A DNA stretch of 62,642 nucleotides, filler included, from Stramenopiles sp. TOSAG23-2 (GCA_900128395.1; 11 parts of 11 records of this genome joined end to end with filler, not necessarily neighbours in it); one strand, 5' to 3'. Positions 6,701-61,191 are shown, numbered from the whole stretch's first letter. The notes: generated by a model from the letters alone, not told the origin. Numbers and translations: made by a program.

Positions 6701-7138
6701 AACAAATATATTGATTTTGATCAAGAAACTATTCAATTACACGTTGGAAAATTGGACGTCTCAAATATCAATTCCGTGAAAGATGCACAAAATCGGGAAG
6801 TTTTAACGTTTGATGTCTCCATTAAAAATCCATTATCCATGCCATTGGAAAATGTTAAATTATCAATCGACGAACCATATGGTGATAGGACGCAAAAAGT
6901 TGGTAAATTAGATGTAGGTGCTGTTCTAAAAAAATCTATTAAAGTGCCAATTGTAAAGAAAAAATGGAGTAAGAAAGTGAACCAACGATGTGTCATTGTT
7001 AGCGCATACGCAAACGAATTATTTGCAATGAGTGGTTGGGAAAATACAGTCTGTTATGATGAAGCTAAATCAAAAGAAAAGTTAAAAGGAATTAAAGTTG
7101 TATTAGCAAAATGGAAAGGTCTTAGTAAAAAAGAGTAA
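3772..7138 (+). CDS. Secreted animal-type (factor XIII-like) transglutaminase with N-terminal LNR/Notch module; reading frame broken by three tandem duplications
   Basis: ATG 3772 begins a signal-peptide-like MKNYNYHLINLLLIATSVVVVAHA. LNR-like CYHSWIGDKSCDKACDNKENNFDGGDC. Catalytic triad motifs YGQCWVFGG (Cys), WNFHVWVDAWM (His), GWNAVDATPQE (Asp). C-terminal beta-barrel-like IKNPLSMPLENV. Removing one copy of each duplication (124, 128, 172 bp) joins the 3772 leader and ORFs 3974-5818, 5860-6273 and 6233-7138 into one frame. Confidence 0.88.
3783..4030. repeat. Exact tandem duplication, 124-bp unit (3783-3906 / 3907-4030)
   Basis: Direct comparison; frameshifts the 5' end of the transglutaminase. 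Confidence 0.95.
5657..5912. repeat. Exact tandem duplication, 128-bp unit (5657-5784 / 5785-5912)
   Basis: Direct comparison; frameshifts the transglutaminase. Confidence 0.95.
6059..6402. repeat. Exact tandem duplication, 172-bp unit (6059-6230 / 6231-6402)
   Basis: Direct comparison; frameshifts the transglutaminase. The unit starts GTATGT and ends TAG. Confidence 0.95.
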
Positions 7139-7240
7139 ATACACTGCTGCTTATGCTGCTTTATATATGTTGTATTAGCAAAATGGAAAGGTCTTAGTAA
7201 AAAAGAGTAAATACACTGCTGCTTATGCTGCTTTATATAT
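7097..7240. repeat. Exact tandem duplication, 72-bp unit spanning the transglutaminase stop codon
   Basis: 7097-7168 repeated at 7169-7240. Confidence 0.93.
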
Positions 7241-7548
7241 GTAAATATTGAGATGGTTGTGCGTGTATCCATTTATTAAAAAAAGTAAAATAAAATAACA
7301 TATTATTTATACTTGTTAGACTACTTGTAGTATCTAAGCCTCTTTTTGGAAGCCTTAACCCACGGCTAATTTGAAATTTCCTATATTTCAAAATAAATAT
7401 TTATACTGTATTACAAGATGTACAGATAGATACTGTAACTTACCTGTATGTAGATAAGAACAACATGTTGTAGTTATCTATTGTCACCTTCTTCTTCTCA
7501 ATTTCCGATATATATATATATATATCAATAGAGTTGCAACTAAATATC

Positions 7549-7854
7549 ATGGGTGCTGGAGCAAGTGTTAGCCAGGATGAAATTAAAGAAATGGATGCTA
7601 AACAATTAGCTGAATTATTTGCAGAAAAAAATGAAAAAAACAGTTACCTCGTTGGACTTATCAATGAAAAACAAATAGACGGTAACACTTTAATGTCTGC
7701 TATTGAAGGGGACAAGGTTCAAGATTTAATACATGATGTAGAAAAAGATGAAAGGAAAAGACAAGAATTAGCAGAAACATTACAAGGATTGAATGAAATA
7801 TACTTTAAACGTTTTCAAGGAACTGGATTTACTGGAAAATGTAACGTTAGTTGA
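7549..7854 (+). CDS. Small predicted N-myristoylated protein with a SAM-like helical domain
   Basis: ATG 7549 gives MGAGAS (MGxxxS myristoylation consensus). LINEKQIDGNTLM resembles the SAM-domain (E/Q)IDGxxL motif. Confidence 0.55.
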   Translation: MGAGASVSQDEIKEMDAKQLAELFAEKNEKNSYLVGLINEKQIDGNTLMSAIEGDKVQDLIHDVEKDERKRQELAETLQGLNEIYFKRFQGTGFTGKCNVS

Positions 7855-7997: not shown

Positions 7998-8097
7998 NNN
8001 NNNNNNNNNNNNNNNNNNNNNNNNNNNNNNNNNNNNNNNNNTTAATTAATTAANNNNNNNNNNNNNNNNNNNNNNNNNNNNNNNNNNNNNNNNNNNN
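7998..8097. other. Artificial contig-joining spacer (N44-TTAATTAATTAA-N44)
   Basis: Identical 100-nt spacers with stops in all six frames also occur at 16094-16193, 24172-24271, 32249-32348, 40316-40415, 48377-48476, 56433-56532, 57986-58085, 59539-59638 and 61092-61191. Confidence 0.99.
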
Positions 8098-15765: not shown

Positions 15766-16193
15766 GTTGGCTGGTTTATCTTCTATATTCTACTTTCTAG
15801 TTAACATCATATATATTTATATATCTATATTTTGTATTTTTTGTTATTTGATTTTTATTTTTTATTTGAAATTCCCATCATAATTTCAATACCTACAGTA
15901 CCTGGTATGATGGCCAAACACGCTAAAAAAAAATGATTTGCTAATTATTAATATTACTAGGGATCTAGCAGGTGTAATATTTCAAGTGCCTTTTTTTTAA
16001 AAGTTGCACACAGTCAATACGAATTTAGAGAGCCCAAAACGAAAAAAAAAAAAAAATAAATAAAATATATTGCGATAGGTAGATAAATAAAAGNNNNNNN
16101 NNNNNNNNNNNNNNNNNNNNNNNNNNNNNNNNNNNNNTTAATTAATTAANNNNNNNNNNNNNNNNNNNNNNNNNNNNNNNNNNNNNNNNNNNN

Positions 16194-24171: not shown

Positions 24172-24271
24172 NNNNNNNNNNNNNNNNNNNNNNNNNNNNN
24201 NNNNNNNNNNNNNNNTTAATTAATTAANNNNNNNNNNNNNNNNNNNNNNNNNNNNNNNNNNNNNNNNNNNN

Positions 24272-31804: not shown

Positions 31805-32778
31805 CCTCTAACACCCTGTCATCACGTATATTAATATGTAGTATATATTAATCAACACAACAAAAAGGACAATTATTTTGACTTTTGTTTTAGTTTGAGG
31901 ATGAATGAATGAAATATAAGGAGAGAGGAGAGAGGAATGATTAGATAGAAATATAAAACATCGAAAGAAAAAAATAATATTAAACGATATATATATATAA
32001 CTAAGTGGAAATTTATCATACATTTATACATATCATTATATTTATCAAAAGAAAAATACTATTAAACGATATATATATAACAAAGTGGAAATTGATTTTT
32101 ATACATATATACGGACGAAATTATATTTATATACATTATATAAGGAGATTTTGACATATATATATAATAAAGAATAAGAATTAGTCAACATAAAACAGAC
32201 AAAATGTGCATTGGTGAAACATTTTGTGGAAAAGATTCCGATGAAGTANNNNNNNNNNNNNNNNNNNNNNNNNNNNNNNNNNNNNNNNNNNNTTAATTAA
32301 TTAANNNNNNNNNNNNNNNNNNNNNNNNNNNNNNNNNNNNNNNNNNNNAAAATCTCTCGACATCAATAATAAGTAACCTCCCCTTTGTCTTTCTTTTTCA
32401 ATGTATTGCGAAATGAATTTGTATTTCTTAAATCTTGATTGCTATTGAAACTGCGAACGACTGGCAATGGTACACGTCGTCGTTTTGTTTTATCCGTCTC
32501 CCGTTTTAATTTTTTATTAATCAATGCTAATTTTTTTCGTTTTTCTCCCAAAAAAAAAAAACAATTCTACAATATTTATTGAATTTATCTTTGTCGAATA
32601 CGTCTAATGTGTCCACTATCAGCTATATGTATATATACAATGTGTCAAATGTTTTCCACTGTCCACACTGTCCGTATTGCTTTAATATATATTACAATAT
32701 TTATTGCTTTTGGATACAGAAAAAATATCTTTTATTAATTTTTAACGGATTTGCATTTTTTGGTCAAGCACAAATTAT

Positions 32779-40315: not shown

Positions 40316-40415
40316 NNNNNNNNNNNNNNNNNNNNNNNNNNNNNNNNNNNNNNNNNNNNTTAATTAATTAANNNNNNNNNNNNNNNNNNNNNNNNNNNNN
40401 NNNNNNNNNNNNNNN

Positions 40416-41268: not shown

Positions 41269-41269
<1 letters not shown>

Positions 41270-44200
41270 TAATTGCTATCCTTTTGCTCATCATCTGGAA
41301 CATGCTCTGCTTCCACAACGACAGATTTTGCTAATAAAGCTTGAAGATCTTCATTCTGTTTCAAATCATCGTGACAATAATCTATTGCCGATCCCTTATT
41401 TGCTACAGCTGCTTTAGCAATATCCATATCTTTTTTTAAATCATCGTGGCAGAGATCTAAAAGATCTCCATCATGCTCGACATGAAGCATCATTAAAGGC
41501 TTACACCTTATTAGTTCCTCAAAACTGTAGAAGGTCTTCAATTGCGAATTTTTAGTTTGAAGTCCAGTTTTTTTGGCTGTAATTTTTGGCTTAATGGCAT
41601 TCGTATAAAAGTCAAGCAACTTTTTGATACAAAAGGCCTCCATTGATGTTTGCATTTCGGTCTCCAACGAGACTGAATGATCTACATAATTCCAGCGATA
41701 GAGTGGTTTTCCCAGAGTTATTTTTCGAATCTTCCTCATTTTTTTTTCAAGCGCTTCCTTTAATACTTTTTTAATCTCTTCCATGGGGTCATCATACTTT
41801 TGTGGCTTGTTCTTCTTATAAGTATCATAATTAAACTCTTTTACTATGTAGTAAAATTTAAGCCTTTCTTCATTTGCATCCAACTCATTGTTGTTGGTCT
41901 CGTATAATTTTTTTTGTTCAGCATGAAGCTGGACAAGAACTTCCTGTATAACCTCGCATCTACGAAGCATATTCAAGATATTCATCAGTCCAAAATATAA
42001 CAATCCAAACATTTTTGTTAGTACAAATTCTGATACGGTTTTCTGATGGAACTTCACTTCTTTGTCACTACATTTAGATTTCCCTGTTAAAAAATCTTCA
42101 CTCCCCTTTATGGATTGCCATCTAAGAATGTTTTTTTCTATCCATGTTGGCTTTGTAAAACTTTCCATTGTTTTGTCTGGATAATATAAAAAATTCCAAG
42201 CAACACAGCCAACGTTTTTATGAAACTGACCAAGATCTGTTGACTTTTGTTTCCATCCTTTGAAACAAAACTTCAAATGCTCCTTCACTTCTTTGACATT
42301 CAAAGTATCTTCATCTTTTTCAGGTATCGCTACTGTTGGTAAAGCATAAGGTGGTAGGTTTGCATTCATTCGATCGTCGAGGCAACTCATATGCAAATTA
42401 TTAACCCCATTGGCAATTAAAACATTACGATGCTCTATAGCATGTTCCTCCATACAAGATGTAATACGTTTAATTTTCTGTCTCAAATATTCAAAACCAT
42501 ATTCGGTATTTACTAATTTGACTACCGTATCACGAAAATCTAGCTCACGAGCTAGCAACCCCAGCTTCTTATGAAGCCCACAAATTAACTTTGGAAATAG
42601 ATCTCCAATCCACTTAGTCTGATCGAAGGCAGCGATACGTTCATAAAGTTTTTGTTGGTTCTCGCAAGGTTCAACAAATATTACATTAATACTTTCAGAA
42701 TCATTATTTCTCTCTTCCGCGAAATATGCATTACTTTCAAAGTCGAGGAAATTTATTTGTTCATGTTGTACTACTACCCTTGTTTGATCTTCTAAATGTG
42801 ATATCTCTTCAATTTTATTTTTCCATTCCTTACACCATGTGTATACTTCCTTATATGCTAATATTGTTGCATTCACATTTAAATCCAAATTGAAGATAAA
42901 ACACTTGTATGTATGTATATCTTCTTTGCGAGGCCAGTATACTTTCATAGGATCGTGTTCCCAAAATTCTTTTAATTTTTCTTCGTCCCAAGGACCATCT
43001 TCTAACAATCCTTCTTTCATTTCAGAGAAAACGCTGGAGATATATCCACTAAATCCCGCAAAGTCACGGACCGCTTTGATTGCCTTTGCGACAGATTTAG
43101 ATCCTACAACTGAATCTTTCATTTGTTTATAAAACACGTACTTCATTACCTGTCTCAACAACATTTCTAATCGATGAATAGATAAGAAATTTGCAGCGTA
43201 CTCTGCTATGAAAGATGTACTACAACCGTCTGGCCTTTCGCTACCTGGAACGTCATACATATCGATTTTGTTTAAAATCGTGACCTGCGCTGCATGCGGA
43301 GAAGCAAAAGAGAAGGTTTTGCCGTTACTACTAACGAAACCATTACGATTAGCTGTTGTGCCTTGTTGGGTCGGCGTGGTAACATAAAGGTCGACAGGAA
43401 GGCTTTTTGTATAATTTACCCATCGGTCCAAAATATGATTATTTTCCTCTTTATCAAAGTTTTTGTAAACATTATCCCCTTCTCCAACAAAATCCAATAA
43501 TGATATATCCTGGTCCAAACCAATAAAGGCAGCATAAGCTTTCGAAACATTTACAGTCACTTCTACAAGATATTTCAAAACTTCAGCACTGTTATTTGCA
43601 TTTTGTCTGGCATCTCTGGCACTATTGTAGAGGCTTTTTAATTTTTCTTTTGCATCAGAAATACTGTATTTTTTTGCTTTCGATTCCCCACCCTCTCCAC
43701 ATAGCTCAATATGTTGAATATGAACCGATTTAAAAATATCGTCGTCAACATCCTTATTATCTACAATTTTGATATTAATTTTCGTCAGTGAAGCTGTTGT
43801 TGCTTTTGATCCCGTAGGGAAGAGATTGTAAATGCCAGTAAGTATGCCTATTAAAGTCGTCTTACCGCTGCTAACGACACCTCGGATCATTACTACCCTT
43901 TCCACAATGTTGGACAGTGAATGAAACACTTGGTTTACATACATCTTTGACAGTTTAGATGCACAAGTTGAGTCCCTTATACTTTGGCAAAACTGGGTTT
44001 TTAAACAGGTTTCAATAACTTTTTGATCACTTAAGTGATGATTACCTGGATGGTATAAGAAGAATTTTGAAGTATTTTGTTGTTGTTCCAATTCTTCGGC
44101 CTGCGCAATAGGAACTGCTTGTGCAGTTGGTAGCATTATAGTTCTTTGCAGTGTCAATAAATTGTCTAAACCACATTGAAAGATATATGGTATACATACT

Positions 44201-47200
44201 AATGCAGCTGAAATATTAAAAACGGTAAAATTGCCTGCCTCTAATATATCACCAGCAAAAAAATGCAGTATATCTCTTAAAATCAGCCTTGTTGCAACAT
44301 CTGCTCCACTCTTGATATCATTTTCATAGTCATTTTTGTATAAATGCATGCAAAAATGATTCATTACCCAAGCTTTCCTGTACAACAAGTAAAGGGCAAC
44401 GAATGGCATTTGAAACGGTAGTTCTTCGACTTCTAATGCTGTTGCATCTTCCACTTTGCCCATTTTTCTGAGCTTGTCAGCCTTGTTTCTTGATTCTGGT
44501 CTTTCCACGCAAAATAATTTTATCACCTTATCCTTTAAGAACATTTGAAAATCTGCTGAACTTTTTAGAATTTTTTTCTTGATATCTTTGCTAATACTTG
44601 CATTAACATTATTGCCAAAGCAGTGTCTATCGTTAAAATCTATATATCCAATGGTTTTCTCTAACTGAAATTTATATCTTTTCAACGTTTCATTTAAAAT
44701 GGAAGCAACTAACTCTTTTATCGATGATGTATTATCATACGAACTTTTCAATTTTTGTACAACTTGGTTAATTGCATCTCCTAACTCGACTCTTTGCGAA
44801 AATACAGGTTGTTCCATTTTATTGATAATCGACCATTCAAATATCCATCCCTCGATCACTTCATTTGTAAATGAAAAACCTGTTGCTGGTGTATTTATAT
44901 CTGTTGATTCCAAAAGACTGCATACATAAATATACGTAGCCTTAATAAGAAATGCCGGTATAACTACTTTTGCATGCTGGTCTCTACACTGTCGTATTTG
45001 GCAAAACATTTTCTCCTCACCTAAACCAGTGGTATATTTAAGATTAAAATTTAATTGTTCCCCATCCTCTAACATATCCAACAGTAGATTTTTATCAAGA
45101 AGGCCAATTGTTATTGTAAAAGAATTTGGAAGTCCCTCAAATAATTTTAAAATGTCGATAATTTGACGACATTCATAAAGTGGAACAAGTATCTTTTCAA
45201 AGACGCCTTTGATCCCATTTTCATTCATTTTTTCCAAAACAGTACGTGAACTCTCGAACTGTGTTAACATTTCATTAATCAATAACTTTATAATTGACTT
45301 CCATGATGTATTTCCATCGAGTCCAACACTGCTCACCAAATCGTCAATATTAAATTCCACGCCTTCGCAAACCATATAACACACTTTTAAGCATTGCATT
45401 AAGGAAGAGTCAGATTCCACATTCAAATTTTTTGTTGCCTCGCTTAATACTTCAATAAAACTTCTATTCGTAGAATTGCGAATTATGGAGCGAATGTCAT
45501 CAAGGATAGTACATAATACATTTAACCTAATTTCCCATTCCGAAATATTCAGATCTGGTCGATCTTGAAAGTTTATTTTGCCTAAATTTAAGAAATTTTT
45601 TAACAAGGTCAAACCTTCAATGATATAATTCTTGTCTATCGTGATACCTGCAACCCAAGAGCGAATCATCGTTACGATAGAATCTAAAGATGGAAGACCC
45701 TTTGGAATTTTATCTGGTTTCTTCTTATACCTCAATATGTATTTTACATATTCTGTTATGATTTGACTTGAACCAGCAGCAGAAATCTCCACATTTTCGC
45801 AATCTGAAAGAGGTATTGTATTAATGTTTGGGCACGACAAAGAACCATTAACGTTCGAAGGTGATACACCATTAATCGACTCGGAAAATTGTATCGCGTT
45901 AAGGCGAGCAACAACCTGTTCTTCCTCGAGCAACGCATCATGAAGTGATTGTGATGTCGTCCCATCTGCTGCATTTCCAACATCCTCAAATATTGCGCCA
46001 GTTTTTGCGCCAGTTTCTGCGCCAGTTTCTGCGCCAGTTTCTGCGCCAGTTTCTGCGCCACTGGAAAAGAGCTTGCTATATTTACTACAAACACGTAATA
46101 GCTGTTTCATGTTCTTGCAATTCCACCATAATTCCACCAAGGGCAATGCACTGCAAATTAATATCGTAATATATGACAGAATACCATGTACTCGGATTTT
46201 TTCATCAGAATTTACAATACATACTATTTCTATCCCGATATACATATAAAGGGACGCAATGCTGCGGCTTAAGATATCCAATTCAGATAACACAAACTTT
46301 TCAATGCACATTGCTAATGTCAGCAATAGCACACACCACCGCCAATATATAATATTTTCATAAAATACCAGTGGGTATGAATAAAATATGAAGCTAGAAA
46401 AGAAAACCCATGGTTGTGAGAGTGTCGATGAAATCCGAATTTCATCATTTCCAACTTTCGTAGTAAAAGACACCTGTCTTTGCAATCGATTTTGTAATGA
46501 ATTCTTTGCCCATTCCTCTGTCTCCGTCATCGCTTTATTTATTTCAGATACAACAGCAGGTACTGCAATAATCATACTTATATAGTCACCCTGGCTTGCT
46601 GCTGCAAATCCAAACATCAAAATACAACTCAACACACTTGGAAAACTTTTTTCGAACAACACCACAGATGCCTCTTCCAATACCGAAAAAACAGTACGGT
46701 TAGACTTCCAACCGAACAAATCTTTTACAAAGTCGATGACGTCATAACACCAATTTCCAACTATACTTGTAAATTTTTTTATGTATCCAAATACATATGC
46801 TGCTACAAGCGAAATATATAACATCATGCTGAAACAAAACTTTTCATACAAAGTTAAAATGAGTACATCATATGAAGATATACATATCATAAAACAGGCT
46901 GCGGTAAACAACAATAGCGATAATAACGAAATCACCACAGCTATTCTTACAGTGCCATCTTGATTGTTATCGGTACCACCTTTTAATCCGACACTTAATA
47001 TTAACGTTGATCCTATTTGAATGTTATAATCTTCTAGACTTTGTCCATTTTCCAAGCATTTTCCAGCATATGTAATAATCTGTTCAGTTGCTGAAATTCC
47101 CACTTCCTCTTCGATCACTTTTTTCACGTTTTCAACAAAATCAGTAATACCAACTTTAATTGTTATCGTCTTACAATTTAATGTTTCAACGAAAATGTCG

Positions 47201-48078
47201 ACCCCAGAAGTAGGGCCTGTGTTCCTTGATTTACCATAGCTCTCAGCATTATTATATATCGACTCTTGATATTGACGAGAAGCCAATTCATCTAGAACAT
47301 AACTATCTTGATTTAGCATCTGTAAATGAGAAGGAGGTTGCAACTTCTGTTTTTGCGCATGGCCATAACTACCACTAGCACCGCCAGTGCCTCTTGCTCC
47401 AACGTATCGTCCGGCAGCATCAAATTTTCCTTCTGCAAAGCCATACCAACTTTGTGCAGTTTTAGTTTTTTTTCCCATCACAGGCACACTATACCAATCT
47501 TTGATCACATACTTCCTTTGATGAAATATCAATATGTAGTATAATGATATCATCGCAGCAATAAGTGCCAAACAGCCAGACAATTGTTTTCCGTTTCTTA
47601 AGAATGATTCAAGCGTGTCTGTTTCAACATAATCAGTGGTGGGGGTATGTAAATACTCTTTGGCTGTTGATGTATTACCATAATGTGGTTGATCATTTAG
47701 ATTTTTATCAATTTTAACATGATCTATCTGGGGCGGTGGCACAAAATTACTCTCAAGCTTGCCTTTGATTTGCTTTCTGGTGGTAGCCGCAGACAAGTTT
47801 TTGAACGTGGACTTTAGCTCTTTTTCGTTGACGTTGTATTTAACATCACTTATTAATGTATTAAAATATACATTAACACGGCGTTCTTTACCTGGTTTGT
47901 TGCAAGTTTTGTGGACAACTTCTTCGCCGGTCGCATTAGTAAAACCTGCATGAAAAGCAGTAACGGTTGCAATAATATATATTATTGCTAGTATCTGCAG
48001 TGTTAGAGACACTGCTCTGCAATTTCCATTTCTACGAAACGAAATATTTTGCATAATGTCTTTCTTATTAGTATGCAC
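41269..48078 (-). CDS. 2269-aa multidomain protein: signal/TM, ubiquitin-like domain, multi-TM block, dynamin-like GTPase, DUF4116-like C-terminal repeats
   Basis: Ubl IFVETLNCKTITIKV..VKKVIEEEVGI..EQ.ITYAGK.LENGQSLEDYNIQIGSTLILSVGLKGG (about 47203-46975). G1 GVVSSGKTTLI with G2 FPTGSKATTAS (about 43881-43790), G3 DFVG (about 43490), G4 LNKID (about 43265). C-terminal GDLLDLCHDDLKKDMDIAKAAVANKGSAIDYCHDDLK. Confidence 0.82.
45994..46060. repeat. 12-bp coding minisatellite, about 5.5 copies (GAET)n
   Basis: TGCGCCAGTTTC units, in frame within the 2269-aa gene. Confidence 0.95.
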
Positions 48079-48477
48079 TCCTAGCGGGCTAGTTATAAAT
48101 ATATTAGAGCAGCAAAAGCAAGGAACAAGAAAGAGAGAGATTGTGAATCTTCTTTTTTTTTTTTTTCTTTTTCGATTTAGTACTTGACTTTAATTTTTTC
48201 TTTTTTCTTTTTTTCTTTTTGTAAAAGATCATTTTGGAATATATATATATATATATTTCATATCTATATTGCAGATCCTTCATTATATATATATATCTAC
48301 CCTGAGTTTCTCTTGTACGAAAATATACTACATTTTTCGGATATTTATTTTTAGTGGAACTCAGAATATTGCCAAANNNNNNNNNNNNNNNNNNNNNNNN
48401 NNNNNNNNNNNNNNNNNNNNTTAATTAATTAANNNNNNNNNNNNNNNNNNNNNNNNNNNNNNNNNNNNNNNNNNNNT

Positions 48478-48606
48478 TTTGGACGGTGGAATAGACACTA
48501 TAATTACACTGGTGATGTAAATTACACTGATGATGAAATTGACAGATTACAGTACTGCACTAGATATGGAACTGATAGTGATGAAAGTGATGAAGATGAT
48601 ATGTAA
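48478..48606 (+). CDS. C-terminal fragment of a viral ORF with an acidic tail, 5' partial
   Basis: FGRWNRHYNYTGDVNYTDDEIDRLQYCTRYGTDSDESDEDDM*, open from the contig start. Confidence 0.6.
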   Translation, partial: FGRWNRHYNYTGDVNYTDDEIDRLQYCTRYGTDSDESDEDDM

Positions 48607-48637
48607 ATTTTATAAGATTAATATTTTATGAAATTTA
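48604..48637 (+). terminator. 3'-end hairpin (15-bp stem including two G-U pairs, 4-nt loop) starting at the stop codon
   Basis: TAAATTTTATAAGAT-taat-ATTTTATGAAATTTA. Confidence 0.5.
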
Positions 48638-48689
48638 TTTTAGGCAAATCTAATTTAGAAAAAAAATGTTGTGGTATATATATACTGAA

Positions 48690-51600
48690 ATGGTAAAAAA
48701 ACCTAAAGTAAGTAAAAGTATGTCTCTTCCAGATATTTTCTTAAAATATTTAGCGAAGAAGTTAGTTGCGTTCGAACGAATTGATAGAAATGGAATAGCG
48801 TGGTTTAAAAAACGACACGAGAAAGGGTGTACGGGTGGAACATCATGCACAGGATGTTATAAACCGTTCACTATGCTTCACGAAATTTTAAAAAGAAAAA
48901 AATACAAAGATTATCTCCTAGTAAAAAATGAAACGTGGAAATTTGGAATAGTTAAGCGAAGTGATTTAAAAAAAATATTAAAAACGAAAAAAAATTATTA
49001 TATGCTAGAAGTTATACATGCGGAATATCCTAGAAGGCTGTATATCGATATTGATGGGAAAAAAGACTGCTTAGATAATGCAGTTAAAGTTATGAAGGAA
49101 CTATTGGGAGAAGATGTAAGAATGGCGATTAGTGGAAGTAAAGGAATAAAAAATAAATCTAAATTTTATTCCTATCATATCGTTTTTCCTGATATAGTTT
49201 TTAAAGATTTACAGCAAATGCTAGATTCTGGAATGGTAAATTACATTAAGCATATAACAAAAGGAAAAGAGCATGTAGAACAAGATGATTATAATGGAAT
49301 TGATGATGGAATATATAAGAAAAATCAAGCCTTTAAACTTATATTTCAGAAAAAGAAAAAAGGCGAAGGAGACGACCGTATACAGAAAATAATCAAAGAT
49401 AACAAAATAGAGAATCATATTGTTCAACTTTTACCTTCAGCATCATATCCAGAATTAGATAAAGCATTATTAGAAAAATTAAAACCTTATCAACCTGACT
49501 TCCAAATGGATAGGGAAACGAAAAAAATTGTTCGAGTAAAAGGAGAAAAAAAGAAATATGCACCAAAAGGAAAAAAAATAGAAAAATTAAAAAATGAAGT
49601 TGCTCCTAAGATAAATATAAAAAAATGCTCCCCAGAAGAATTACTGTTCACTATACCAAACACGAAACCAGAACACCATTTAGGACGAGAAAATCACTGG
49701 AAAATAGGTTTATGGTTTTACCATCAGACTAGTGGATTAGGATATGAGAAATATAGAGAATGGGAAAGACGACATTATAAGAATGATGATAAAAACCCGT
49801 ACACCACAGTAGCGAGTTGGAATAATTATAAAAATACAAAATGTTTAGTAAAAAGATATCATATAGAAAACATAATACAGAAATTTTATGGATTTATAAA
49901 TAAACCAGCAGTAGTTGATTTTTTGGAAACGGTGTTTAAAGGAGATGAACATGACAGGTTAATAAATCAAAAATTTATCAGTCCTTCACATTTCGATTAT
50001 AGTAAAAAAGTTCAATTAGTAAAAGCAGGAATGGGGAGTGGAAAAACTTATGGGGTGATAGAAGAACTAATTAAATTCTGTTCTGAAAATCCAGATTTGA
50101 AAATATTATGGATTACCAATCGTGTCAGTATGGCTAATAATATAATGGGAAGATTAAATGGTGATAATTGTAAAATGAGAAATCGAATAAACAACTTGTA
50201 TATTAAAGAGCAACATAATAAACTGATACGACAAAGAATAAGAAATGGTAATTCTATATCAAAATATTTTAAAAAAAGGGATAAAGCAGAAATGAGTGAT
50301 ATTGAAAAAAAATATTATGAAGAATTAAAAAATAAGAACCAACAAAATCGAGATTTAAATTTTACTCATTACAAAGAAGTAGTACGAGAAAATGCTAAAA
50401 TTCAAAAAGAATTAAATGGCGATGGAAATTATGGCACATCAAATAAATATCTCATGCAGCAGGAGAAACGGTTAGTATGCGAAGTGGAATCATTACATTA
50501 TACCGATGAGGTAAAATATGATATCGTAGTTATAGATGAATTAGAATCTGTTTACCATAGTTTTTTATCAGATACTTGTCATAAGGGAAGCGGTAAAAAC
50601 AATTATATATCAAACTATATGGCTTTTAGAAATCATATATTAAAAGCGGATAAAGTTTTTATCATGGATGCGTACCTTCATAAAAGAACACTGAAATATT
50701 TAAGTCTTTTAGATAATGATATGAAACAAAATCTTATTATGAGAGCAGATAAATATGATTTAGAAAACAAAGAAGTAAGAAAATTAGAGGCGAATAACTG
50801 GATTCGCAATATTGTAAATGATTTAAAAAACGGTTTAAAACTGTATATATTTTATCCATATAAAACTGGAAAAGGAAGTTTATGGAATTTATCAATAGAG
50901 AATTTTAAGAATAAGATAATGGCGATGAGCGACTTATCGAATAATGATTTTAGAGTTTATCATGGCGAAACAGACAGTGAAGTTCGTCGAAAATTAGAAA
51001 ATGTGAATGAAGAGTGGAAACAGGCAAAATGTATAATCACAAATAGCAGTATAACTGTGGGAGTAAATTATGATAACAAAAATGATTTTGATAAATGTTA
51101 TTTATCTTATGCTGATTTTATATTACCTAGAGATATTATACAGACTAGTTTAAGAGTACGAAATTTCAAATATAGAAATAAGAAAAATGAAGATGTTATT
51201 TTCTTATGTAAATTTCCTAGTTATAGAGTAAAGAATGGTGAATATTTAAATCCTGTTAGACTTATGAATATTGATATAGTAGATGATGAATTAACGCCAG
51301 TAGAGTTAAAGGAATTTAATTATATGAAGAAATTTTTAACTGATGAATATGACGCAAAATGCTTTCAGAGCGTAGTGGAATTTATGATAATGTCTGGGTA
51401 CAGAATCACAACTGAAAGTGGAGATAAGGAGTTGATAAAAAAATTTAAGGAAGATTTTAAAAATGCCACTTTTGGAGCGGAAGATTTATGGGCGTATGAT
51501 AACATAAAAGCAATTAAGGAAGAGGAGAAAGATATAAAAGAGGAAAGGATAAAACTAGATTATAAAGCATCTACAGATGATAAACTTGAAGTGAGAAAAT

Positions 51601-52400
51601 GGTATGTTGATAATATGTGTTATGTAAAAGCAGATACTCAAATATCAGATTCTTCGTTGAGATTTATTAATAATTATTATTTAGACTTAAATAAAAAAAA
51701 AGTTGAAAAAGATATTAAAAAATTAAAAAAGAACTGTAAACAGAAAGCAAATAAAGCAAAATGTAAATCAGATAAACATAGAGAAATATATTATGATAAA
51801 TTGTTTGCTGCCGCCATAGACAATTACAACAAAAAGAAAAAAGAACCGTTTGCAGCAGGAGAATTAAATAGACGATTATGGGAGAAACCTAGATTTTTCG
51901 AAGGTTTAAAAACCTACTTTTATGGAAATCGGGAATCGCACAAATTATTACATTTAGCACTTACTTACTGGAATGGAATAGGTGAAAATGATTATTATGT
52001 AGAAGAAGAAAATATAAATGTAAATAAACGCTTTTTTTATAACAGTAAAAAGTTAACAGAAGAGGATAGGATATTTATATGTGAACAACTTCATATTGAT
52101 TATGAATTAAAAGAAAAAGAAATATTTTTAAAACAGAAAGATTATTTACTAAAAAGATATATATTAAAAGAAGCGTTTGGTTGTCATGTTATAGAACAGA
52201 ATAATAAAGGCAAAGTCATATTATCAGACCCAGAATTACTAGGAATGTGTTTAGTAGAATTAAAATTATGTTGTGAAAATAATAAATTAAATTTTACAGA
52301 TGAAGAAATTAGACAGATGGACGAACAGAAAAAAATGGATAAACTATTTACAAGCGGCAAATGTCTTATTTTAGATAGAGAAGATTGTGAAAATTATTAA
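48690..52400 (+). CDS. AEP (PrimPol-like) primase-polymerase fused to a PriCT-like domain and a UL9/origin-binding-protein-like superfamily 2 helicase
   Basis: AEP motif I PRRLYIDID, II SYHIVF, III IDDGIYKKNQAFKL. PriCT-2-like HWKIG..F....G...YREW. SF2 motifs KAGMGSGKT, WITNRVSMA, CEVESL, VVIDELES, MDAYL, TNSSITVGVNYD, QTSLRVR. Likely start ATG 48690. Confidence 0.88.
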   Translation: MVKKPKVSKSMSLPDIFLKYLAKKLVAFERIDRNGIAWFKKRHEKGCTGGTSCTGCYKPFTMLHEILKRKKYKDYLLVKNETWKFGIVKRSDLKKILKTKKNYYMLEVIHAEYPRRLYIDIDGKKDCLDNAVKVMKELLGEDVRMAISGSKGIKNKSKFYSYHIVFPDIVFKDLQQMLDSGMVNYIKHITKGKEHVEQDDYNGIDDGIYKKNQAFKLIFQKKKKGEGDDRIQKIIKDNKIENHIVQLLPSASYPELDKALLEKLKPYQPDFQMDRETKKIVRVKGEKKKYAPKGKKIEKLKNEVAPKINIKKCSPEELLFTIPNTKPEHHLGRENHWKIGLWFYHQTSGLGYEKYREWERRHYKNDDKNPYTTVASWNNYKNTKCLVKRYHIENIIQKFYGFINKPAVVDFLETVFKGDEHDRLINQKFISPSHFDYSKKVQLVKAGMGSGKTYGVIEELIKFCSENPDLKILWITNRVSMANNIMGRLNGDNCKMRNRINNLYIKEQHNKLIRQRIRNGNSISKYFKKRDKAEMSDIEKKYYEELKNKNQQNRDLNFTHYKEVVRENAKIQKELNGDGNYGTSNKYLMQQEKRLVCEVESLHYTDEVKYDIVVIDELESVYHSFLSDTCHKGSGKNNYISNYMAFRNHILKADKVFIMDAYLHKRTLKYLSLLDNDMKQNLIMRADKYDLENKEVRKLEANNWIRNIVNDLKNGLKLYIFYPYKTGKGSLWNLSIENFKNKIMAMSDLSNNDFRVYHGETDSEVRRKLENVNEEWKQAKCIITNSSITVGVNYDNKNDFDKCYLSYADFILPRDIIQTSLRVRNFKYRNKKNEDVIFLCKFPSYRVKNGEYLNPVRLMNIDIVDDELTPVELKEFNYMKKFLTDEYDAKCFQSVVEFMIMSGYRITTESGDKELIKKFKEDFKNATFGAEDLWAYDNIKAIKEEEKDIKEERIKLDYKASTDDKLEVRKWYVDNMCYVKADTQISDSSLRFINNYYLDLNKKKVEKDIKKLKKNCKQKANKAKCKSDKHREIYYDKLFAAAIDNYNKKKKEPFAAGELNRRLWEKPRFFEGLKTYFYGNRESHKLLHLALTYWNGIGENDYYVEEENINVNKRFFYNSKKLTEEDRIFICEQLHIDYELKEKEIFLKQKDYLLKRYILKEAFGCHVIEQNNKGKVILSDPELLGMCLVELKLCCENNKLNFTDEEIRQMDEQKKMDKLFTSGKCLILDREDCENY

Positions 52401-52431
52401 AAATATTTAACTAAATAAATTAAATATTTTT
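52399..52431. terminator. Hairpin (12-bp perfect stem, 9-nt loop) between convergent primase-helicase and ATPase stop codons
   Basis: AAAAATATTTAA-ctaaataaa-TTAAATATTTTT fills almost all of the 34-bp intergenic gap. Confidence 0.55.
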
Positions 52432-52434
52432 TTA

Positions 52435-53121
52435 TTAGTCTAGTTCAATTTCATTAAAATTCTTTCGATAAATTAATGCCTTATGTTTTTCATCTGGAAC
52501 AATATGGAAAAAGTCATATTTCTTCTCTGTTGCTTTTTTAAATTTTCTTATCCATTCATCTTTTTCCAAACCCATTCCCAGTTCAGCATATAATAAATTC
52601 ACTTCTCTTTTTGATGGTACAGCAAACAGACTAATTACGGAGGTATTGATTCTGCATACTCTAGGACAATTAGACCATTTCTGGACGAGGCTCATTACGC
52701 TGCAATTTTTGTGTCTCGAACGAATCCAATATTCCACAATAGAATTTTGCTTTTCCATCATCATGTCATCAAACAACACGAGATTCTGACAATTCTCATT
52801 TAATTCATCTACAGGAACAACATCATTAATATCATTACTCATAAACAATATATCCTCACCTGTCTTTTCTTTTATTTTATCGAAAAAACTCTGAATCATT
52901 TGGAATTTAGGCTGACTGAGATGTTTAGAATAAATATATAATTTATCAAATGAAGCCATTTTAATAATGTAATAAACAGCCATATTAGTTTTTCCACTTC
53001 CAGAACTTCCTGAGATAATCCATCTAAATGGATGCTGCGGAAGCAGTTTGCTCTTGTTGCGGTATTTCTTACCAGCAGAAATGCGTTTTAAATTATCGCA
53101 GTTTTTAATATCCAATTTCAT
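52435..53121 (-). CDS. A32-like (FtsK/HerA superfamily) DNA packaging ATPase, Polinton/PLV type
   Basis: LLPQHPFRWIISGSSGSGKTN (Walker A), LVLFDDMM (Walker B), RSRHKNCSVMSLVQ (A32 RH..S....Q motif), PRVCRIN. About 230 aa. Likely start ATG 53121. Confidence 0.92.
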   Translation of the reverse strand: MKLDIKNCDNLKRISAGKKYRNKSKLLPQHPFRWIISGSSGSGKTNMAVYYIIKMASFDKLYIYSKHLSQPKFQMIQSFFDKIKEKTGEDILFMSNDINDVVPVDELNENCQNLVLFDDMMMEKQNSIVEYWIRSRHKNCSVMSLVQKWSNCPRVCRINTSVISLFAVPSKREVNLLYAELGMGLEKDEWIRKFKKATEKKYDFFHIVPDEKHKALIYRKNFNEIELD

Positions 53122-53223
53122 TTTATATATATCACTTAGAAAAAAAAAATCAAAATGTAAAAATGATTTAATCAAAAAATAAAAATGATAACTTCAAAAA
53201 ATATAATCTTTAGTAATAGTATA

Positions 53224-54333
53224 ATGAGTGTAGATTATCGAAAGATAGAATCGATAGATGACTTTAATAACTTAATTGACTCTTTTGTAGAGACAAGGAA
53301 AGCCCTAAAGCAGAAGGTGAAAGAAGACAGGGGAGAAACAGTCGCAACTTTACGAGTTGGAGAAAAACCTTTAACTAAATTAGAACAACAACAAGCACCA
53401 ACAGTGAAAGCAATTGAACGACTCCGTACTGATTTATCATCTTTAAAACAGAACCATAGCCACTGGGATTTATTTGAGAAATATGCTAATGCTCCAGATA
53501 AAAAAACATCAGAAGTCACCGCACGAAGAGAGCGAGGAAAGCCAATTTACAAAATTGGAGTGAACGGTACTGTAAATGTAGAAGATGTTCAGGATGATGT
53601 ATTTAGAGTGGTGAATCCTAAAACAGGTGAATCAATTGTAAAACAACTAACTCCTTCGTTAAGTCAACTGCTTTTTGTTCCATCTGGAAGTATTGAGTTT
53701 GATAAAATATCGAAAGATGCCCTTGTTAATTATTATGAAATAATGCAGTTTAGTGGAATTAATCCAAAATCAAATCGAAACAAAAAAATTAAATTAAGTA
53801 AAAAAGCATTTGATAAAGTATATGGAAAAGTGGAAACTAAGGAAGAAGCATTTACAACTCCCGTGAAACAACGACCTAGAAGAAGCAGTTTAACAGATTC
53901 TCAAATGAAAGATATTGAGTTTGCCATGCAGGATGCAGATGATGATGATACAGATGATGATACAGATGATGAGTCAGAAGAGGAACAAACTAAACTAGCA
54001 TCCTTAAGTGCAGTAAAAAATAGAAGAAGAAGAGGAAAAGGAATGCTTAAAAATAAAAAAATGACGAAACAACAGGTACTTCGAATTAATAGAGAAACGG
54101 CTAGAAGAATGCTGCAACAGGCAAAACCTAAAAAGAAAAGAAGTGGAACTGGTTTAATGACTATAGACGAAATGGTTAATAGACTCCACCTAATGACACA
54201 GAGCCAACATGCAGGTAATCTGTCATCCAACATGCAGGATGAAATGATGCAAATAATGGACACTTTATTAAAGAAAAAAGTTATCACTAAGAAACAGCAC
54301 AGAGTGTTATTTAAAAAATATATTGATTATTAA
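53224..54333 (+). CDS. Polinton/adintovirus-type uncharacterised protein with basic GxG sites and C-terminal RLxL..S..AGN motif
   Basis: RRRRGKGM, KRSGTGL, and MVNRLHLMTQSQHAGNLS..DEMMQIMDTLLKKKVI. I recall this C-terminal pattern from Maverick/Polinton hypothetical proteins (not searched). Likely start ATG 53224. Confidence 0.65.
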   Translation: MSVDYRKIESIDDFNNLIDSFVETRKALKQKVKEDRGETVATLRVGEKPLTKLEQQQAPTVKAIERLRTDLSSLKQNHSHWDLFEKYANAPDKKTSEVTARRERGKPIYKIGVNGTVNVEDVQDDVFRVVNPKTGESIVKQLTPSLSQLLFVPSGSIEFDKISKDALVNYYEIMQFSGINPKSNRNKKIKLSKKAFDKVYGKVETKEEAFTTPVKQRPRRSSLTDSQMKDIEFAMQDADDDDTDDDTDDESEEEQTKLASLSAVKNRRRRGKGMLKNKKMTKQQVLRINRETARRMLQQAKPKKKRSGTGLMTIDEMVNRLHLMTQSQHAGNLSSNMQDEMMQIMDTLLKKKVITKKQHRVLFKKYIDY

Positions 54334-54363
54334 TTTATTTAATATTTTATTGTATTATATTAA

Positions 54364-56432
54364 ATGAGTAATAAATTTCTAACATTAGACGAAGATGATA
54401 TTTTTGCACAACCAGAAATTACTAGGTCAAAATTAGGACTTGTTTTCGGACAGACGGTACAGTCTCATAGTTCCAAATTAGACAATATTAGTAATTTAAA
54501 TTTTGCTGATAATAAAATTCTTAAGGCTACTGGTACTAATACTTTTGAACTGATTAATATTAGTTCACATGGCACTAACGCCTTAAATTCAGATAGTGCT
54601 TTGTTAACTAGTGCTGCTTTAAGTAATTATGTGACTACTAGTGCTTTAACAACTACTCTGTCAGATTATTCTACTACCTCCAGTATAAACTCTACTTTAG
54701 CAGACTATGCTTTAACTAGTTCTGTCCCAACTAATAATAACCAATTGACCAATGGGGCTAATTTTATTACCAACACTACAGATGCTTTTTCCTACTTGAA
54801 TCTATCTGATAAACCCACTATTCCCACTAATAATAATGAACTAACTAATGGTTCTAACTTTATTACCAATACTACAGATGCCTTTTCCTATAATAACCTT
54901 AGTGGAAAACCCACTATTCCCACTAATAATAATGAACTAACTAATGGTTCTAACTTTATTACTAACACTACAGATGCTTTTTCCTATTCGAATCTATCTG
55001 ATAAACCCACCAATATCACAACTACAGATTCCGACCAAAATATTACTGGTAAAAAAACAATTCAAGATGAAATTGTGATAGACCAAAATAATTCTGGGGA
55101 ATTACAATTACATTTAAATAATGGTTTAGGACAAAATAAAATTACAAAATTAGTGGCTGTTCCACATGCATCAACTTCTTCTCCAATCACTTTATCCCTT
55201 CCATCTGTAAAAGCGGGTGCTAGTAGTGACCAGTTGGTCAGTTTAAATGCTGTCCAGACTATAACTGGAAAAACTATGGATTATAATTCCAATACATTTC
55301 AAAATTTTCCCACTCCAGAAATTACTGAATCCAGTACATCTACTTTAACAAATAAAACTATGGATTATAATTCCAATACATTTCAAAATTTTCCCACTCC
55401 AGATATTACTGCCTCCAGCACCTCCACTTTAACAAATAAAACTATGGATTATAATTCCAATACATTTCAGAATTTTCCATCAGGCGATGTGACAGCCTCG
55501 TCTACTGACACTTTTACAAATAAAACTATTAGTGGAAGCGATAACACTTTTTCCAATATTCCTTACAGCGTGTTAACAGGAACTCCTACAATCACTAATT
55601 ATGCTACAGCAAATAATACTTTTACTGGTTCACATAAAATCAATAATTATGATTTAAATAATAATGCGGAAATAGAATTTATGAGTTATTCTGCTGGTGT
55701 AAATAGTGCAGATAAATTAGTGTTGAGAAATAAAGCAGTTGGAGGTGGGGGATATTTTGCTATTCACCAAAACGATAGTGTAAATCCTGCTATTATGATT
55801 ATGGACGACACAAGTGTTTTTCTTCAAGGATTAAAAGTGGTTGGAGGAAAAGTAGGTGTAGGTGGTGTATTAGGAAATCCTGCTTATGTATTAGATTTAG
55901 AGGGGAAAATGGGTATTGAATATAATTTAGGTAATACTGCTCTATGTGCTTTTAAAAGTCTTACGACAACTTCGTATTCACAATATACAAGAGGTTTTGA
56001 ATTTCTAAATGCTAATGGAAATAGTATGATGTGTATTTTACATTATGGAACATCTTATACTGACCCTCGTGTAGGAATTGGTAGAACAAATCCATCTCAC
56101 CCATTAGATATATTTTGCCCCAGTAGTAGCGGGTGGCGTGTAGAGCGAACAGGTAAAAGTATAGACAGTAATTTAGGTATAGCAACTGGTAATTACACAT
56201 ATTTTAAACTGGGAGGAGGTAGTGTATTCCGTTCTGGTTCTGGGAGAAATAGCACCCTTGAAGGAACTTTATCTGTTAATGGTTCATCTGTTAGTAGTGA
56301 TAGACGAATAAAAAAAAATATAGTTGATGCAGATGCTAAAATAGCATTAGAAACACTAAAAAAAATTCCTTGTCGTGAATATGAATACAGAGATACAATA
56401 CATAAGTCAGGTAAAACCATAGGATTTATAGC
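54364..56432 (+). CDS. Virion fibre/spike-like protein with C-terminal peptidase S74 intramolecular chaperone, 3' partial
   Basis: S/T/N-rich. YxNLSxKPTIP and TLTNKT repeats, VGIGRTNPSHPLDI fibre repeats, and SSDRRIKKNI..ALE.LKKI...EY......GFIA (S74 signature). Confidence 0.85.
54727..55011 (+). repeat. Three 96-bp (32-aa) coding repeats in the fibre gene
   Basis: PTNNNxLTNGxNFITNTTDAFSYxNLSxKPTI starting at 54727, 54823 and 54919. Confidence 0.92.
55270..55530 (+). repeat. Three 84-bp (28-aa) coding repeats in the fibre gene
   Basis: KTMDYNSNTFQNFPxxxITxSSTxTxTN starting at 55270, 55354 and 55438. Confidence 0.92.
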
Positions 56433-58085
56433 NNNNNNNNNNNNNNNNNNNNNNNNNNNNNNNNNNNNNNNNNNNNTTAATTAATTAANNNNNNNNNNNN
56501 NNNNNNNNNNNNNNNNNNNNNNNNNNNNNNNNTGGTATTCGACATGTTGTTGTTGTTTTATTTTTCACTGGACGTCGTTTTACACGTCTACGTTTCATAT
56601 TCTTAGTATTTTGTATATAAATGATAATAATAATAATAATAATGTTTAATTAAATTGTTTAATTCTCTTTCTTTATTTATTTCTGAAGGGTAAGAGAGAA
56701 CGGGGCTTGTAGTAATATATTAAAACTCTCTCTCTATATATATATATATATTGTAGTATATTTTATAAATGAATAAGTAAGATAAAGACTTGTTAATAAA
56801 TAATATAATGCATACATCAATATGTGATGTATATATCTTATATCTACAGTACCTGTGGTGTACATCTAAGAAGCGCTACTATTATTATCCTCTTCTTTTT
56901 TTTTTTTATTATTTCAAAAAACGCCGTGGAAAAGGCGAGGACCTTCTCTGGACTCTGGACACCTTAACCTACCAGAGAGGCATTTCCTGGTGGTCCAGGG
57001 TGGTAGGGTGGTCCAAATCTACGTTTTCCTAGCGAGGACCCCTGCCCAAATTTATGTTAAAAGTATAATTTGCTTGATCAGGAAATTTAAGGAGGAATTT
57101 AAGAGCTGAAATGAAAATTCCACCAAAATTTTGACAGCTTGGGAGAGATTTTGCACATTTCATTTCTTTATTTCATTTTCGATTTGTGCATTTCCTGGAT
57201 TTATAATTTGTGTCGAAGAAAACATGCTTTTTCGTCGATTACACACACATATTGAGTTAATTTTTAAAATATTGTAGTGTCTAAGTATAATTTTAGATAG
57301 GATATTTATTGATAGGTTATTAAAATTTGTAGTGTTCAAGTAAGTTCACAAGCCTATTGTCTGCTAAACCGCATCTACTGAATTTATAAATACAGTGTTA
57401 ACAACCACACATACCGTATCCCACTATATCAATACATCAATACATGTCCCGTTTCACCACTACAGGACAGCTATGCTACGCCTATATACCTAAATCAACT
57501 TATAGTGCTATACCCAAAATCTTCCACTAAAACACAAAAACTATCGGAAGATTTTACGACAACAAATCCAACGTTTCTATACTTCTTACAATACCGTCAC
57601 CATACTATGTAGACGGTTAACAAAATTCGGCCACCTTTTTGGAAGTTTTTTAAAAAAAATAAAAAAAAATAAAAAAAAATGGCCACCTTTTAAAAAATTT
57701 CTGAAAATCGTTTACGCCTACACAGCTACTCAGCGTCCGGAAATCCTACTTAAAAACATTTTGATAGGAAAAAAGACTAGTTACAGAAGTTAATTAATCT
57801 TTACCTACCCTTTGATGTGTACACAGTCCCCTTATAATAAAATAGATATATAACATAAAATAACACTATAAAAACTTGTACATATATAATATATTCTAAG
57901 ATAAACATTATTCCTTATTTTTTATATAATTTATTTCCTTTAATTTATTTCCTTTGAAACCCCTACACATCAGGGCAGGGAAGCTNNNNNNNNNNNNNNN
58001 NNNNNNNNNNNNNNNNNNNNNNNNNNNNNTTAATTAATTAANNNNNNNNNNNNNNNNNNNNNNNNNNNNNNNNNNNNNNNNNNNN

Positions 58086-58582: not shown

Positions 58583-59784
58583 TTCAATATTCACTTCTTG
58601 CCCTTATCAAATCACAACTATATATATAATATATATATATTTGTCTCATATACATCCATATACATACAATCTACATACGTACACATCTATCGAATGAATA
58701 TAACATTATCGATATGACTTATAATATGTGCATATATATCGCCATCCATCACACCACAACGGAAGAATATTCCAATAATAATTTATTAAAAAATTCTTTT
58801 TTTCGTCACCAAAAATCCAATTTACGGTTGCTGAAAGAAGTGTTTTTATAAAATGCATTACACAGCATTGCATTTTTTTTGGATTAGACGCATGATGTAA
58901 TTATATATCCACATACTGTAAAATAATTTAAGTTTATTACGCATAATTGTATTGTTTAATTTTATACTCTCATAATAATTCCTACTTCGTACTCTTCAAA
59001 AGGAATAATACACAATAATTTGAAATAATCTCATAATCGGCATAACACGTGCAACAGGGCCACCTTGTTCGCCACCTTGATGCATACGATGATATTATAA
59101 TAATGATTTACATTCGATTTGATATTTTGATGTTGACTTAGATTCAACTAAACTTGGAAATAATTTGCTATTTTCTGCTTTATCCGAGATTGAAATCTGT
59201 TTCGATGATTTTCCTGTCCTACCATCACCGGCATTTGTTCGCGAATAGAAGAGAAGTATTAGAGGAGATTTGAGTTTCCACATATATTGATATTTCATAT
59301 TTCAGTGTACAGTGTACTATCATAAATATATTTACGAGCACTAATTTTAAATTTTTAACAATTTTATAAACTCGCGAGAAGTTCGAAGTATGCATACCTC
59401 GTACCTGGCATTACGTTTCTACGTTCTACGTTCATATATATTTAATAATATACCGTGTTCCAATCCTCATTTTTTTCAATTTTCAATATGTCTAAATCCT
59501 CTCTAATCCTCCTCCTTCTTCTTTGCTTGCATTCGTGGNNNNNNNNNNNNNNNNNNNNNNNNNNNNNNNNNNNNNNNNNNNNTTAATTAATTAANNNNNN
59601 NNNNNNNNNNNNNNNNNNNNNNNNNNNNNNNNNNNNNNGTCAACTCAATTGTCTTTATTCGCTTAATTTATTGTGAGATTTCGTCTGGTGATAGTATTAG
59701 AGATTTTAATATTAGTCTATAAATTGTTTATTGTGCTATATTAAATATTATTACGAGGTTTATTTAACAGTATAATATATGCGT

Positions 59785-61091: not shown

Positions 61092-61191
61092 NNNNNNNNN
61101 NNNNNNNNNNNNNNNNNNNNNNNNNNNNNNNNNNNTTAATTAATTAANNNNNNNNNNNNNNNNNNNNNNNNNNNNNNNNNNNNNNNNNNNN

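Follow-up and report, generated by a model that had tools for sequence, protein, structure and literature searches.

A 1244-residue protein joining a PrimPol-type primase domain to a UL9-like helicase on a short viral contig in the Stramenopiles sp. TOSAG23-2 assembly

We analyzed a 62,642-nucleotide stretch of DNA from Stramenopiles sp. TOSAG23-2 (GCA_900128395.1), referred to here as the window, in which an earlier note had described a viral replication gene. That gene is real. It is a single intact open reading frame (ORF) of 1244 amino acids on the plus strand (P0001; 48666..52400), and the start previously given for it, 48690, is the second methionine (M9). As the note had proposed, one polypeptide carries an archaeo-eukaryotic primase (AEP) domain as well as a helicase, and the gene adjoins one for an A32 ATPase. 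The helicase belongs to superfamily 2 (SF2) and resembles UL9, the origin-binding protein of herpes simplex virus (HSV). Full-length homologues are 838–1264 aa long. The protein is an intact addition to an AEP–UL9-like architecture that is already known, and it does not represent a new kind of replication module. We consider it quite probable that a small double-stranded DNA virus that infects a marine protist, and that is probably related to the polinton-like viruses (PLVs) and virophages (Preplasmiviricota), uses it as its replicative primase-helicase.

The AEP domain occupies residues ~40–281 (48783..49508, plus strand). Single-sequence searches with P0001 gave nothing usable (one spurious match in the PDB at E 0.026 and one match in PHROGs at E 0.068), so profiles were required. 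A Pfam scan of residues 1–440 found no family. We therefore built one from this segment by searching 1.84 billion representative proteins at E ≤ 0.001, which returned 35 proteins, mostly of 930–1490 aa. The three AEP motifs are D128-x-D130 (DID, 49047-49055), S169-x-H171 (SYH, 49170-49178) and D213 (49302-49304), all on the plus strand. In the family alignment D128, S169 and H171 are invariant (36/36), while D130, D213, Y217, K224 and K230 are kept in at least 90% of the 36 sequences. When a profile of 14 N-terminal sequences was compared with the PDB, it matched the AEP domains of vaccinia and monkeypox virus D5/E5 (E 2.7e-4) and human PrimPol (E 3.5e-4), with motifs I–III lined up in both. 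AlphaFold2 modeled residues 1–440 with a mean predicted local distance difference test score (pLDDT) of 82.8, and a Foldseek search of the PDB with this model placed D5, E5 and PrimPol on top at E ~1e-7. Because the conserved motifs, the D5/PrimPol profile matches and the Foldseek ranking agree, we conclude that the N-terminal domain is an AEP of the branch that includes PrimPol and the primases of nucleocytoplasmic large DNA viruses (NCLDVs) and herpesviruses, with its active-site residues intact. A PrimPol-type AEP at the N-terminus had already been suggested from the motifs. At E 0.0023, a Pfam match of one of the 36 relatives to PPL4 (Prim-pol 4) is too weak to carry weight.

Preceding the core of this domain is a cluster of one histidine and three cysteines, H51-x3-C55-x5-C61-x2-C64 (48816..48857, plus strand), which forms a putative zinc knuckle. 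The earlier note had listed the cluster, and it is indeed there. Of 63 family proteins whose N-terminus is long enough to judge, 17 show a matching pattern, all of them closer relatives, so it is a subfamily trait; the four residues are predicted to bind a metal. PrimPol and UL52 carry a zinc finger C-terminal to the AEP domain. The present protein differs, since an alignment of full-length homologues holds no invariant or nearly invariant Cys or His within residues 290–440 that could form a UL52-type finger, and its sole Cys/His cluster is the N-terminal one.

The helicase core spans residues 442–850 (49989..51215, plus strand). It includes a Walker A motif, GSGKT (G457–T461, 50034-50048), motif II, D624-E-L-E627 within VIDELES (50535-50546, with D624-E625 at 50535), and motif VI, Q826..R830..R832 (51141-51161), all plus strand. 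The motif positions given earlier were exact: DID lies at 49047, SYH at 49170, DE at 50535 and GSGKT near 50034. Conservation shows that the motifs did not arise by chance, for besides the AEP residues above, G459, K460, D624, E625, E627, Q826, R830 and R832 are invariant in 34 sequences. The Pfam family Herpes_ori_bp (PF02399) matched P0001 with 54 bits against a cutoff of 20 (E 1e-14), and 17 of the 36 family members scanned matched it as well. A profile of 11 full-length homologues had five matches in the PDB at E ≤ 1. The four significant ones are HSV origin-binding proteins (E 1.1e-6 to 2e-6), with which motifs I, Ia and II aligned; the fifth match had an E of 0.047. The model of residues 441–1244 (pLDDT 74.6) contains two RecA-like domains bearing SF2 motifs I, II and VI, and its nearest structure is UL9: Foldseek ranked the origin-binding protein of HSV-1 (9hgi_B) first at E 2.4e-12, followed by the Lhr family at E 2.9e-8. 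There was no SF3/D5 match in Pfam, and the top structural matches were all SF2. Since Pfam, the profile search, the fold and the invariant motif residues agree, the helicase is SF2 and UL9-like, not SF3, as first proposed.

Between the two enzymes lies a conserved helical domain (residues 302–435; 49569..49970, plus strand) with invariant tryptophans at 350, 366 and 385, modeled confidently as helices in the AlphaFold2 prediction for residues 1–440. It had been described as PriCT-like, a label that found no support, and we assign the domain to no family. PriCT_1 and PriCT_2 in Pfam were matched by none of 12 middle-domain sequences at E ≤ 1 and by none of 36 full proteins at E ≤ 0.01, and a profile search of the PDB found no relative. 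The only hint toward PriCT is a language-model neighbor cluster in which 52% of members carry PriCT_2; the comparison with PriCT was otherwise made by sequence searches.

Two further parts of the protein distinguish it from most of its relatives or lack a recognizable counterpart. A basic insert (residues ~502–561; 50169..50348, plus strand) lies in the linker that connects motif Ia with the ExES/DExE motifs. It was previously put at ~90 aa, and it is genuine. Walker A and DExE are 162 residues apart, where 127 distinct proteins of the family have a median of 81 and reach 165 at most, and residues 502–561 contain 17 K+R against 7 D+E, with a pI of 10.1. Among the relatives only the two closest, L006 and L007, share the insert, in frame and diverged, and the region was modeled with low confidence (block means 39–60). 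The insert is a variable linker expanded in this lineage by about 60–80 residues. The C-terminal domain (residues 851–1244; 51216..52397, plus strand) is conserved in closer relatives according to profile matches. With its own profile, no match was better than E 0.19 in the PDB or E 0.03 in Pfam. The structural search with residues 441–1244 was dominated by the helicase core, so that it barely probed the C-terminal fold. A literature search turned up no publication that deals with the insert, with the H/C3 cluster or with the C-terminal domain.

Taken together, these features suggest how the protein would work. The AEP domain, with its catalytic set intact, is predicted to make primers, and the UL9-type helicase, with motifs I, II and VI intact, to unwind the template using ATP, while the helical middle domain would link the two enzymes. 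The C-terminal domain and the basic insert are candidates for binding DNA or a partner protein. The analysis establishes what the domains are and that their catalytic residues are conserved; the enzymatic activities are inferred, as are the polarity of the helicase, any recognition of an origin and any processive polymerase activity. No DNA polymerase was recognized by Pfam among the 20 other ORFs on two near-complete relatives, L001 and L004, and elongation therefore most likely relies on a polymerase of the host or of a helper giant virus.

The lack of a recognized polymerase on these two relatives could instead mean that the AEP domain is a true primase-polymerase: it would copy the entire genome with no separate polymerase, and the C-terminal domain would recognize the origin. 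Conservation of the C-terminal domain is also in keeping with this. We consider it unlikely. Processive synthesis does not follow from similarity of fold, the C-terminal domain has no detectable DNA-binding homology, and other functions could come from the large unannotated ORFs of the relatives. As a rule, virophage-like viruses use borrowed helper machinery. The claim that the protein could initiate replication by itself was made in the earlier note and is not borne out, in that the C-terminal 394 residues have no detectable similarity to the UL9 origin-binding domain or to anything else. A more specific version, in which the C-terminal domain, aided by the insert and the H/C3 knuckle, binds the origin in a manner unlike UL9 while the AEP primes and extends, is a slightly longer shot still. 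If it were true, a virus of ~20 kb would replicate without a dedicated DNA polymerase of its own.

The fusion is not peculiar to this gene. Among 72 distinct relatives that have the helicase and at least 300 residues upstream of it, 61 matched the AEP profile, and all but one of the remaining 11 retain FDxD/FDxE and SYHI motifs. We rescanned IMG/VR with a more diverse alignment, which yielded 103 relatives, 80 loci of which were kept. An ORF with a helicase match was obtained for 78 of the 80, and 54 of these 78 matched the AEP profile too. The contigs of these 80 loci have a median length of 19 kb, with 56 loci on contigs of 14–32 kb and only one contig of at least 40 kb, which is 526,783 bp long and carries three helicase copies; nine contigs, all ≤24 kb, have giant-virus-bin names. 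In a large family whose members lie mostly on viral contigs of 14–32 kb, the AEP–UL9-like fusion is the standard arrangement. The earlier note had set the fusion apart from the usual replication genes of PLVs and virophages. The fusion stands, and its rarity largely does not, both on these counts and because the available text of an October 2026 preprint (bioRxiv 10.64898/2026.10.13.758929) already reports AEP-SF2 fusions in a "sizable minority" of PLVs and virophages ("polisuviruses").

Several members of the family have arrangements of their own. On L016 the AEP part (549-1607) and the helicase part (1679-3662) are separate ORFs 72 nt apart, a split that is either natural or due to a frameshift or stop. 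Seven metagenome loci, L033–L039, form a distinct subgroup whose N-terminal 450–500 residues miss the AEP profile and keep FDLD and SYHI motifs; in the five longer loci (L033, L034, L036, L038 and L039) a conserved block of ORFs of ~720, 585, 521 and 226 aa precedes the helicase gene. L116 and L118 are the two ends of one 34,654-bp IMG/VR contig and hold the same helicase gene in opposite orientation, which reflects either a long terminal inverted repeat that includes this replication gene or an artefact of assembly. The three diverged copies on the giant-virus-sized 526,783-bp contig (L107, L110 and L111) are monophyletic in the tree described below; each has ~400 upstream residues that lack an AEP profile match and show SxH-like motifs near residue 157–160.

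We placed the gene within the family by a quick maximum likelihood tree of the helicase core (100 rows, LG+G4, midpoint root), with branch support from the Shimodaira–Hasegawa-like approximate likelihood ratio test (SH-aLRT). Database proteins without context, envelopes of fewer than 250 residues and exact duplicates were left out, and the tree has no outgroup and no named reference sequences (R8, F1055L and OsHV-1 are absent). The gene groups with L006 (SH-aLRT 98) and L007 (100), and this group sits inside a 33-row clade (99), itself inside an 81-row clade (99). The latter consists of 58 small IMG/VR contigs, 20 metagenome contigs, two bin-labelled contigs (≤24 kb) and the gene itself. The three copies from the 527-kb contig make up a separate clade (99) within the other group, of 18 rows, together with five of the seven bin-labelled rows.

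This placement bears on the suggestion, also made in the earlier note, that a PLV captured the fusion gene from a giant virus (Nucleocytoviricota). Mimivirus R8 and pF1055L of African swine fever virus (ASFV) have the same architecture, according to the portions available of PMC11253617 and PMC10653895, and distant relatives occur on the 526,783-bp viral contig and on the nine giant-virus-bin contigs. Against a capture, the gene is nested with L006 and L007 in two successive, well-supported clades of small contigs, the 527-kb copies stand in a separate group, and the giant-virus copies are its most distant matches (23–29% identity, E 1e-8 to 1e-12). Nothing in the tree supports a recent capture from a giant virus, which we regard as improbable; a midpoint root does not fix the direction of an ancient transfer.

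The genomic context of the gene has to be read within its own contig. The window is a chain of 11 unrelated contigs, ordered by falling size from 7997 to 1451 bp and joined by ten identical linkers, each made of 44 N, TTAATTAATTAA and 44 N (7998-8097, 16094-16193, 24172-24271, 32249-32348, 40316-40415, 48377-48476, 56433-56532, 57986-58085, 59539-59638 and 61092-61191). TTAATTAATTAA is a 12-base linker that provides stops in all frames, and the 20 runs of exactly 44 N are paired around it. Because the window is such a chain of short contigs, apparent neighbors across the linkers are not neighbors, and any reading of gene neighborhood that spans one is invalid. The true contig of the primase-helicase gene is 48477..56432, or 7956 bp, and all four of its ORFs are open.

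The primase-helicase gene is convergent with the gene for the A32-type DNA-packaging ATPase (52435..53175, minus strand), identified by a Pox_A32 match at E 2.5e-9 (37.4 bits, cutoff 22.8). Next comes an ORF of 382 aa (53185..54333, plus strand) that has an acidic D/T/E tract, basic stretches and a 12-nt GAT repeat (53941-53972), and that matched no Pfam family. The last gene (54364..56432, plus strand) encodes a tail-fibre-like protein and is truncated by the end of the contig, just as a Peptidase_S74 chaperone domain begins (E 3.5e-5, 24.5 bits against a cutoff of 22). It contains tandem repeats of 96 nt (three copies, 54725-55010) and 84 nt (about three copies, 55270-55529), which encode the units 'TNNNELTNGSNFITNTTDAFSY' and 'KTMDYNSNTFQNFP'. 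The A32 ATPase and the Peptidase_S74 fibre on the same contig give the gene a viral context.

The primase-helicase of L006 is 86% identical overall to the present one and that of L007 62%, and both keep the reading frame. L006 also keeps the pair of primase-helicase and A32 genes, with its A32 copy 92% identical and in the same position. By BLAST, these two genes were the only ones shared between the contig and the loci that we fetched. The contig's A32 falls in the same protein cluster (c3) as the ATPase of relatives on 22–23 kb contigs, where the gene order is a giant ORF, c7, a tyrosine recombinase, the primase-helicase, three small ORFs, A32 and four ORFs of 480–580 aa. One 23-kb relative, L001, carries a D12-class N6-adenine DNA methyltransferase (4996-5796, E 2.5e-27); L004 has a tyrosine recombinase match (6832-7767) instead of L001's methyltransferase.

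These relatives also help to judge whether the contig could be a fragment of a giant-virus genome, not a small PLV-like virus. The A32 ATPase is a hallmark of Nucleocytoviricota, where fibre and AEP-SF2 genes occur as well; the contig is just 7.9 kb, so the full genome size lies beyond it; and a 582-aa ORF of the relatives has language-model neighbors labelled Nucleocytoviricota. We nevertheless find a giant-virus fragment very unlikely. The nearest relatives with long context lie on contigs of 19–23 kb with a conserved gene order and a tyrosine recombinase, and the helicase tree places the gene among small contigs. The nearest language-model clusters of P0001 itself are labelled viral, most often Preplasmiviricota, which we take as a lead only.

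It is also conceivable that the gene is part of an endogenous viral element of the protist genome, possibly one in decay, and is no longer replicative. The other ten pieces of the window carry ordinary eukaryotic genes at a G+C content similar to that of the gene's contig, including genes for UMP synthase, serine carboxypeptidase, a MutS domain V protein, SLBP, a protein kinase and ankyrin and SPRY proteins. The probable source sequencing run is small and labelled by organism. Further, a homologue from EukProt (P0009) joins a helicase relative to a segment of fibre protein with 71% identity to the contig's fibre. These points are offset by the four open ORFs, by the preservation of every catalytic residue, by the frame kept at 86% and 62% identity through the insert as well, and by the lack of any host flank on the contig. 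Integration and function are also compatible, since PLVs integrate and reactivate. On balance we find a defunct endogenous copy less plausible than a functional viral gene, though it is the likeliest of the alternatives considered here. Since both ends of the contig lie inside or beside viral genes, a functional virus could have been carried as virions, as an ongoing infection or as an integrated copy.

The fibre segment of P0009 is an observation in its own right. In this gene model, residues 729–872 at the tail align with the fibre gene (54364-56430; 71% identity over 116 residues) and stand in place of the usual C-terminal domain. P0009 may result from the merging of gene models or, in a dataset derived from eukaryotes, come from a rearranged element. 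Elsewhere in the window, an ORF of 2269 aa (41269-48078, minus strand) lies on a separate piece and is neither related to the primase-helicase contig nor a neighbor of it. It has ubiquitin and DUF4116 domains, a weak match to dynamin-N, a (GAET)n repeat and predicted membrane segments. Word sampling across sequencing runs found, besides a 0.99 share in the probable source run, a 0.23 share of the contig's words in one seawater metagenome, and shares of 0.05–0.15 of the sampled words in one marine metatranscriptome, seven viral-fraction metagenomes and one further seawater metagenome. Word shares this small are no evidence for habitat, virion form or expression.

A replicative primase-helicase of a small PLV-like virus remains the reading that we prefer, and several points weigh against it. 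There is no capsid gene on the 7.9-kb contig, be it for a double jelly-roll major capsid protein or for a penton protein. In the relatives, a language-model lead is all that connects the 582-aa ORF with capsid clusters; a profile search found no relative of it in the PDB, and there was no Pfam match for the ORFs on L001 and L004. Membership of the contig among PLVs is thus at most probable. The relatives' ORFs of 1300–1667 aa have no Pfam match and could hide a divergent polymerase. Finally, primase activity may be dispensable in mriyaviruses, as the available passages of PMC11253617 argue.

The AEP–UL9-like fusion is a recurrent replication protein that spans giant viruses, a mollusc herpesvirus, mriyaviruses and small marine viruses, and it is biochemically uncharacterized in the literature that we consulted. 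The present analysis adds a large family of small marine viruses of ~20 kb that carry it. An intact, compact member with confident structural models would offer a clean in vitro system for studying how a PrimPol-type primase and a UL9-type helicase cooperate.

Among known proteins, HSV-1 UL9 (PDB 9hgi, 9hgj, 9zgf and 9vjh) is the best Pfam, profile and fold match to residues 442–850, with motifs I, Ia, II and V/VI aligned, whereas its C-terminal origin-binding domain has no counterpart in the present protein that a profile search could detect. Poxvirus D5/E5, ASFV C962R (AsfvPrimPol), human PrimPol and HSV UL52 belong, by profile and fold, to the same branch of AEPs. In D5 and C962R a primase is likewise followed by a helicase, which is SF3 where the present protein has SF2. 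Bacterial and phage AEPs of the All3500 family have a UL9-like SF2 domain at the C-terminus, closest to PF02399, as described in passages of PMC5862659. Going by that description, they represent an independent joining of AEP and helicase, but in a different AEP family and in the context of prokaryotic mobile elements.

Closest in design are the viral fusions. According to the parts available of PMC11253617, a UL9-related SF2 helicase is fused to a conserved, intact AEP in some Yaraviridae, mimivirus R8, ASFV pF1055L and Ostreid herpesvirus 1 (OsHV-1), while UL9 of mammalian herpesviruses has no AEP; the corresponding text of PMC10653895 reports the same AEP-SF2 fusion for ASFV F1055L. Within PLVs and virophages, the SF2 subtype of the polisuvirus AEP-helicase fusions, known to us from text passages, matches the present gene in lying on small viral contigs. 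For PLV helicases, the text available of a June 2026 preprint (10.64898/2026.06.19.733378) names SF1, SF3, pPolB and "unclassified" types, with "SF2" not mentioned there. PgVV-14T carries TVpol-S3H. In the descriptions available, R8, pF1055L, OsHV-1 AAS00940 and the mriyavirus SF2_hel likewise have an intact AEP at the N-terminus and a UL9-related SF2 helicase at the C-terminus, and, like the present gene, they are encoded beside genes for virion morphogenesis. Compared with them by description only, the present gene stands apart in its clade of small contigs (~14–32 kb), its basic insert and its H/C3 cluster.

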